The notes under the pieces were generated by a model. The model was not told where the DNA came from and made no database searches. It saw only the letters and a program-made list of their open reading frames with translations. Of a DNA stretch of 64,000 bases, positions 62,924-63,395 are shown piece after piece (position 1 is the stretch's first letter; each line of letters opens with the position of its first letter). A program made the position numbers and the translations under genes. Source of the stretch: Escherichia coli (lineage in GTDB: Bacteria; Pseudomonadota; Gammaproteobacteria; Enterobacterales; Enterobacteriaceae); the NCBI RefSeq assembly GCF_003334355.1, contig NZ_QOWP01000005.1. One strand, given 5' to 3'.

Positions 62924-62981
62924 GGTGTTACTCTCGTCAGACGCGAATAGCCTGATGCTAACCGAGGGGAAGTTCAGATAC

Positions 62982-63165
62982 AACAAAGCCGGGAATTACC
63001 CGGCTTTGTTATGGAATAAGGCGGTGCCTAACTCGACGTTTCGCCCGATGGTTGATATAGCTACGCTGATATCAGAAGTTGGACGGCAGGCACCTTGTTG
63101 TGCGTCATTCGAATTTTATGTAGCACGTCCCGAAGGGGCTGACATAAGTCGGTGAATGAGCCACT
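62982..63165 (-). ncRNA. glmY: GlmY sRNA
   Basis: minus-strand sequence from 63165 reads AGTGGCTCATTCACCGACTTATGTCAGCCCCTTCGGGACGTGC... and ends in terminator AAAGCCGGGTAATTCCCGGCTTTGTTG; matches the recalled GlmY 5' sequence and its position between purL and glrK. Confidence 0.85.
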
Positions 63166-63176
63166 GCTTACTATTA

Positions 63177-63193
63177 TGCAGTAACTGTGCCAA
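63177..63193 (-). promoter_or_regulatory. sigma54 (-24/-12) promoter of glmY
   Basis: minus strand TTGGCACAGTTACTGCAT (GG-N10-GC) ending about 13 nt upstream of the GlmY 5' end. Confidence 0.75.
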
Positions 63194-63281
63194 TAAAGAA
63201 AATAGTTTGGTAACGTACTGATTATACGTTGCTTTGAGGGATTTATGGCTTCTTCGCTATTTGAATGTAAATCAGCCACTG

Positions 63282-63395
63282 TGTCGCTAAAAAGAGACAA
63301 CTTAAGATAAACTTATTAGATTACAATAAAATCAATCATTTAAGTGTCGCCAGAAAGCGACACGGTAAACCACCCATTGTCGTGATTTACAGACA
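63282..63395. promoter_or_regulatory. three TGTC-N10-GACA enhancer sites (GlrR-type) upstream of glmY, with an IHF-like motif between
   Basis: TGTCGCTAAAAAGAGACA (63282..63299), TGTCGCCAGAAAGCGACA (63345..63362), TGTCGTGATTTACAGACA (63378..63395); AATCAATCATTTA about 63329..63341. Confidence 0.75.

Follow-up and report, generated by a model that had tools for sequence, protein, structure and literature searches.

In the stretch of 64,000 nucleotides of Escherichia coli DNA analysed here (contig NZ_QOWP01000005.1 of RefSeq assembly GCF_003334355.1; hereafter the window), the small RNA gene glmY and its surroundings are best read as the canonical E. coli glmY locus, in which the glrK-qseG-glrR genes that lie directly downstream are transcribed separately, from a sigma-70 promoter of their own; we place the probability of this reading at about 95%, and nothing in the sequence contradicts it. 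The locus matters little as a discovery, being already known and experimentally dissected on K-12 DNA, as the original prediction acknowledged in calling it a known system, and the primary paper on it is reportedly that of Reichenbach et al. (2009). Its value lies in three points: published experiments contradict the inference that glmY transcription reads through into the regulator genes, a supposedly even spacing of the activator sites is corrected to 33 plus 63 bp, an arrangement largely conserved across other Enterobacterales, and comparative evidence is brought for a non-ATG start of glrK. The presence, identity, position and conservation of all of the elements described below were observed directly, and the TTG start of glrK comparatively.

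The minus strand from 63165 to 62982 carries the 184-nt primary transcript of glmY, the processed core of which runs from 63165 to 63018. This core is matched, on the minus strand, by the Rfam family RF00128 (GlmY_tke1) with 147.1 bits against a gathering score of 33 (E = 1.1e-33; model positions 1–163 of 163), which is the sole Rfam match within 55000–64000, and the terminator hairpin at 62982–63010 completes the 184-nt GlmY beyond the Rfam-matched core. The predicted fold of the RNA has three hairpins and a minimum free energy of −67.2 kcal/mol (z = −4.83), a stability equalled by none of 200 shuffled sequences. Compared with E. coli K-12 DH5alpha, the window has zero mismatches from 64000 to 62913, a segment that takes in glmY and the entire control region, and from 64000 to 62094 the lone difference is at 62912. 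The prediction that the full GlmY sequence is present on the minus strand is thus borne out both by RF00128 over the whole model and by identity to K-12; since the window is here base-for-base K-12 except at 62912, its alignment to K-12 glmY returned none of the mismatches that had been named as grounds for abandoning the identification. A 671-bp query across the locus finds matches in 5,426 of 5,426 complete E. coli genomes, at a median of one place per genome, and the gene order purL, glmY, glrK (qseE) is that of the K-12 annotation, with glrK lying 3′ of glmY in all 13 other species compared. In K-12, GlmY acts as a decoy for RapZ, stabilises GlmZ and raises glmS expression (PMC4152352).

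Upstream of the RNA, the sigma-54 promoter TGGCACagttaCTGCA occupies 63177–63192 on the minus strand, with GG at −26/−25 and GC at −14/−13 relative to the +1 at 63165. In a search for TGGCAC-N5-TTGCA at one mismatch or fewer, TGGCACAGTTACTGCA at 63192→63177 (minus strand) was the only match in the window, with one mismatch; about two such matches would arise by chance in 64 kb, so that the motif match alone proves nothing, and the significance of the element comes instead from its position, with the GG at −26/−25 from the GlmY 5′ end, and from its conservation. A promoter alignment finds TGGCA[CT]-N7-TGC at the same distance from +1 in 13 of 13 other Enterobacterales species, and the −24/−12 element that had been predicted for glmY is accordingly present with its core kept throughout. 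An overlapping sigma-70 −10 hexamer, CATAAT, lies at 63173–63178 on the minus strand; a sigma-70 scan detected neither this glmY promoter nor that of glrK, both of which are weak consensus matches. Transcription of glmY in K-12 depends on rpoN, the activator and IHF (Göpel et al. 2011, PMC3045617), and it is from this K-12 literature that we take the dependence of glmY on GlrR, IHF and sigma-54 as probably applying to the window as well.

The three GlrR (QseF) sites upstream of this promoter were located by pattern search and by conserved position: ABS1 (TGTCTGTAAATCACGACA, 63378–63395, centre −221.5), ABS2 (TGTCGCTTTCTGGCGACA, 63345–63362, centre −188.5) and ABS3 (TGTCTCTTTTTAGCGACA, 63282–63299, centre −125.5), of which ABS1 and ABS3 also rest on PMC3045617 and ABS2 is reported there to be essential to the sigma-54 promoter. 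The pattern TGTC-N10-GACA occurs exactly three times in 64 kb, where shuffled sequences lead one to expect 0.75 and at least three are reached in 6 of 100 shuffles; all three occurrences fall inside 114 bp, for which our own Poisson estimate gives a chance of the order of 1e-6, and GlrR, the cognate regulator of these palindromes, is encoded in the same window. The number of sites that the original prediction had given therefore stands, but their even spacing does not, as the centres, measured relative to the glmY +1, are 33 and 63 bp apart. The activator sites lie more than 100 bp upstream of the promoter, with an IHF consensus site in between, and the predicted IHF-like motif resolves into two consensus sites: a distal one (site 1, AATCAATCATTTA, 63330–63342, plus strand), which is an exact match to WATCAA-N4-TTR within a conserved block and the mutation of which abolishes sigma-54 promoter activity (PMC3045617), and a proximal IHF-like one (site 2, AATCAGTACGTTA, 63211–63223, minus strand), which fits WATCAR-N4-TTR and lies in a conserved ATCA..N..TTA block. 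The two WATCAR-N4-TTR sites flank ABS3, matching the "two additional regions flanking ABS3" of PMC3045617. The rpoE sigma-54 promoter shares the activator QseF and the type of upstream activating sequence (PMC6075780) but belongs to a different target gene, which lies outside the window, and no fourth TGTC-N10-GACA exists in the 64 kb.

For the comparison across species, a genome collection was scanned with the pattern GCTCATTCA-N{30,60}-CGAATGA (16 fixed bases and a 30-nt variable gap), which returned at least 120 loci; among the matches listed, 13 are real glmY loci of other Enterobacterales, namely Escherichia albertii, two Citrobacter, two Enterobacter, Pluralibacter, two Pantoea, Acerihabitans, Yersinia and three Photorhabdus, and nearly all others are chance matches in unrelated phyla. 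A match in a Klebsiella metagenome-assembled genome (L045) was likewise rejected as a chance match, having no glrK downstream. In the promoter alignment of the 13 species, three TGT-N12-ACA sites were counted in 11, the exact 33 plus 63 bp spacing is found in 8 (for example −240/−207/−144 and −216/−183/−120), and 3 of the 11 three-site species are off from it by 1 bp; both Enterobacter have the two outer sites only, with the 96-bp span unchanged, and both IHF blocks are kept as well. The window's spacing (within 1 bp) and its −24/−12 core recur in the loci of Yersinia, Photorhabdus, Pantoea, Citrobacter and Enterobacter, whereas in Yersinia and Photorhabdus the whole upstream array lies some 16–19 bp farther from +1 and Yersinia lacks the overlapping sigma-70 promoter (PMC3045617); the glmY and glmZ promoters of Yersinia pseudotuberculosis and Salmonella (PMC3045617) are also close known systems. 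In terms of sequence, the uneven spacing is a largely conserved feature of these loci. Distances of 33 and 63 bp correspond to about 3 and 6 helical turns and so place the GlrR sites on one face of the DNA, and the conserved spacing would fit GlrR dimers bound on that face with IHF bending the DNA in the long gap. The E. albertii locus (L028) departs from the rest in having GACG in place of the right-arm GACA in all three aligned GlrR sites, and in its proximal site also GAGTC for TGTC, so that none of the three fits even TGT-N12-ACA; its sigma-54 core is intact.

Under the canonical reading, phosphorylated GlrR (QseF), encoded three genes downstream, would bind the three TGTC-N10-GACA sites, and IHF would bind on either side of ABS3 and bend the DNA, the bend allowing GlrR to contact the closed sigma-54 RNA polymerase at the −24/−12 element, whereupon the promoter would open. 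The 184-nt transcript would end at the strong hairpin terminator and then be trimmed to the GlmY of about 148 nt, which would act in the GlmY/GlmZ/RapZ/glmS circuit, and glrK-qseG-glrR would be transcribed weakly from a promoter between the GlmY terminator and the glrK TTG. With a separate glrK promoter, the kinase and the regulator would control the sRNA, and the promoter of the sRNA would feed neither of them.

The intrinsic terminator of GlmY (62982–63010, minus strand) consists of a perfect 12-bp stem, a 5-nt loop and an interrupted U-tail, UUUGUUGUAU, which lies partly inside the stem. The repeat search and the fold both show this hairpin clearly, with its G+C-rich stem and U-rich tail, although a generic terminator scan left it uncalled, probably because the stem, lengthened by flanking A/T pairs, takes in part of the T-run, so that the tail window holds fewer than five T; given the interrupted U-tract, the terminator may leak to some extent. 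Nine of the 13 other species, from six genera (Escherichia, Citrobacter, Enterobacter, Pluralibacter, Acerihabitans and Pantoea), likewise carry a hairpin rich in G+C with a U-rich tail after GlmY. In two Photorhabdus loci (L103 and L117, with L018 similar), a hairpin, GGCGGGATA...TATCCCGCC, is found at +190 to +235 of glmY without a U-tract, and glrK begins about 150 nt or more beyond it, an arrangement that, to judge from the sequences, resembles the terminator-less Proteus type of the same family.

Downstream of the terminator, the sigma-70 promoter of glrK (qseE) spans 62948–62983 on the minus strand. Its transcription start, 62948 in the window, is transferred from K-12, where qseEGF was reported to be transcribed from a separate sigma-70 promoter that initiates 25 bp ahead of the start codon (PMC6075780), and would thus hold here by analogy. 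The −10 box TAGCAT (62960–62955) precedes the published start site by 6 nt, and ten of the 13 other species have it as well, about 31 nt from the glrK start codon; this distance is fixed, even though the glmY +1 and the glrK start are from 243 to 542 nt apart, depending on the species. A TTGTAT at 62983–62978, 17 bp from TAGCAT, is the probable −35. This putative −35 overlaps the GlmY terminator in its U-rich tail and the final two bases of its stem (62978–62993), so that terminator and promoter would share DNA.

The original prediction had noted that the glrK TTG lies about 60 bp past the GlmY terminator, which agrees with the 58 nt measured between the last base of the terminator stem and the TTG at 62923–62921, and had taken this as consistent with read-through coupling of the sRNA to its own regulator genes. 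Some sigma-54-driven glmY transcripts would then pass the terminator into glrK-qseG-glrR, and GlrR would positively autoregulate its own operon. The gap of only 58 nt, the interrupted U-tail, the silence of the generic terminator scan and the glmY-glrK synteny in 13 of 13 species examined speak for such an arrangement, as does Proteus mirabilis, where glmY-qseEGF has been shown by RT-PCR to be a real operon (PMC8745638). Gene order in P. mirabilis glmY-qseE-qseG-qseF is the same as here, with QseF sites upstream of glmY, but P. mirabilis lacks both a terminator after GlmY and a promoter in the glmY-qseE spacer, each of which is present in E. coli and in the window (PMC8745638); it is the lack of both that accounts for co-transcription there, and read-through is thus a real arrangement, but of another genus. 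In the window, the 12-bp G+C-rich stem of the terminator is perfect, and a conserved −10 box stands ahead of glrK, for which a start site has been mapped in K-12.

The deciding evidence comes from K-12. Fusions to lacZ of the fragments −480 to +107 and −70 to +107 relative to qseE, that is, one with the complete glmY locus and one lacking it, gave "virtually indistinguishable" activities, and loss of qseF or qseG altered neither of them in either growth phase (Göpel & Görke 2018, PMC6075780). The longer fragment corresponds to 63403–62817 of the window, which spans the whole locus and differs from K-12 at one base. Earlier RT-PCR, according to the same paper, indicated that read-through "does virtually not occur" in K-12 (PMC6075780), and the two-component system has been described as "transcribed independently" (PMC3045617). 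The predicted coupling is therefore contradicted by published lacZ fusions and RT-PCR; on these K-12 data read-through is largely refuted under the laboratory conditions tested, and we regard it as very improbable for the window, where its absence is carried over from the K-12 papers by analogy. Also unlikely, in our judgement, is that heavy sigma-54 transcription of glmY modulates glrK-qseG-glrR through slight read-through or through occlusion of the glrK promoter by terminating polymerases, which could come into play at maximal GlrR phosphorylation or under envelope stress. If true, it would constitute a hidden feedback link in E. coli, between the "independent" model of K-12 and the operon of Proteus.

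The canonical reading also assigns to glrK a TTG start at 62923, giving a sensor kinase (GlrK/QseE) of 475 aa at 61496–62923 on the minus strand, as judged from PGAP annotation, the comparative codons and the exact named protein; PGAP annotates the same TTG and 475 aa on identical K-12 DNA. At the aligned position, the window and 11 of the other species have TTG, and both Pantoea have GTG. In the 14-species comparison, the variable columns at the three codon positions number 7, 5 and 15 of 15 over codons 2–16 and 11, 2 and 16 of 16 over codons 17–32, whereas in the 15 in-frame triplets upstream of the TTG 45 of 45 columns vary. Amino-acid identity, averaged over species pairs, is 0.80 for codons 2–16 (nucleotide identity 0.70) as against 0.23 upstream (0.42), in-frame stops occur 3–12 codons upstream of the TTG or GTG in several species, and in E. 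coli a Shine-Dalgarno-like purine run, GAGAG, precedes the TTG by 7 nt. It is exactly at the predicted TTG that the coding signature sets in, and this start is supported, if short of proof, by the comparative evidence; our search of the literature found no direct N-terminal or protein-level data for the GlrK start.

A start at the ATG of codon 16 (62878–62876), with the first 15 codons serving as a 5′ untranslated leader, is highly improbable. ATG is the commoner start codon, the protein so started would begin right at the transmembrane helix (MLAFLLILLPLL...), and N-terminal data on GlrK were not found, GlrK being reported as undetectable in a global proteomics study (PMC6075780). Against this, the ATG is not conserved: Citrobacter FP75 has ACG at codon 16, Acerihabitans has ATC, and Pantoea, Yersinia and Photorhabdus have one of CTG, CTC, GTC and GTG, so that the ATG is replaced in seven species overall, and an ATG at either codon 16 or codon 17 is missing in three. 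The third-position variation of codons 2–16, the excess of amino-acid over nucleotide identity and its abrupt stop upstream, as well as the upstream stops and the GAGAG-type purine run described above, all point to translation of the segment that this start would leave out, and the basic K-R...R...R tail that precedes the helix fits the positive-inside rule, which is established knowledge. The idea that the gene equals the longest open reading frame in the ORF list (61496–62986), with a 496-aa GlrK starting at a TTG at 62986 inside the GlmY terminator, can be all but dismissed, since the 21 extra codons are unconserved (every column variable, amino-acid identity 0.23) and are interrupted by in-frame stops in other species, the TTG lies upstream of the published glrK transcription start (62948), and PGAP gives 475 aa instead. 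In Photorhabdus (L018, L103, L117) and Yersinia (L062), an in-frame ATG is found three codons before the TTG (ATG ATT TCC/TCG TTG AAA...), and the start may therefore differ in these two genera, GlrK there possibly beginning at that ATG with a 3-residue extension.

Codon 4 of glrK (62914–62912) is TGT (Cys) in the window, whereas it is TGG (Trp) in K-12, in O157:H7 and in 13 of 13 other species. A widespread E. coli lineage (L122, L123) has TGC (Cys) at this codon, the third base of which is thus tri-allelic within E. coli, and the exact Cys4 GlrK protein is recorded on at least 1000 contigs. The exact 81-mer of the window around codon 4 was found in 0 of 5,426 complete E. coli genomes, so that the TGT allele would seem to be rare on a K-12-like flank; a 31-mer null at the same codon is uninformative, as CCCGTTTTTCCCC was probably masked for low complexity, which breaks the 28-base seed, and only the 81-mer result is usable.

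The identities of the genes directly downstream of glmY hold as predicted. The exact 475-aa sequence of GlrK is named QseE/GlrK in NCBI, and identical proteins carry Pfam HisKA and HATPase_c; against NCBIfam it matched other kinases only, all below cut-off, with no QseE/GlrK equivalog among the matches, and its naming thus rests on near-identity to annotated proteins. The lipoprotein gene qseG (yfhG; 60618–61331, 237 aa) matches NF007997 with 360 bits (cut-off 234), and glrR/qseF (59294–60628, 444 aa), which encodes the sigma-54-dependent response regulator and overlaps qseG by 11 nt, matches NF011695 with 981 bits (cut-off 763); they are followed by glnB (PII; 58895–59233, 112 aa; NF008111, 243 bits, cut-off 202), all on the minus strand. 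The spacer between glrK and qseG (61332–61495) is, at 164 nt, unusually long for the interior of an operon, and its 9 differences from K-12 (about 5.5%) exceed those of the flanking genes; just 3′ of the glrK stop it contains a small hairpin and T-run (AGCCT...AGGCTATTTTATTT). A plus-strand open reading frame of 76 aa antisense to glmY (62925–63155) was considered and set aside as unsupported and spurious.

On the other side of glmY, the 3′ end of purL (phosphoribosylformylglycinamidine synthase; 63499–64000, minus strand, the stop ending at 63499) was identified from RefSeq and from identity to DH5alpha. It is followed by a REP-like imperfect inverted repeat, GCCGGATGCGGC / GCCGCATCCGGG (63433–63486; 24-nt arms, 75% complementary), and by an intrinsic terminator of purL found by the terminator scan (63396–63422, minus strand; 8-bp stem and T-run); the repeat lies between the purL stop and this terminator, and in the L122 lineage it shows substitutions as well as two indels of one base each. 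At 63395–63401 the terminator's T-run abuts the TGTC of ABS1, which leaves zero spacer to the glmY enhancer. Divergence from K-12 DH5alpha is mosaic over 58350–64000: the upstream segment (64000–62094) has 1 mismatch in 1,907 bases, and the operon downstream of about 62093 differs at 76 of 3,744 (62093–58350, about 2%), a pattern that suggests a recombination boundary inside glrK near 62093.
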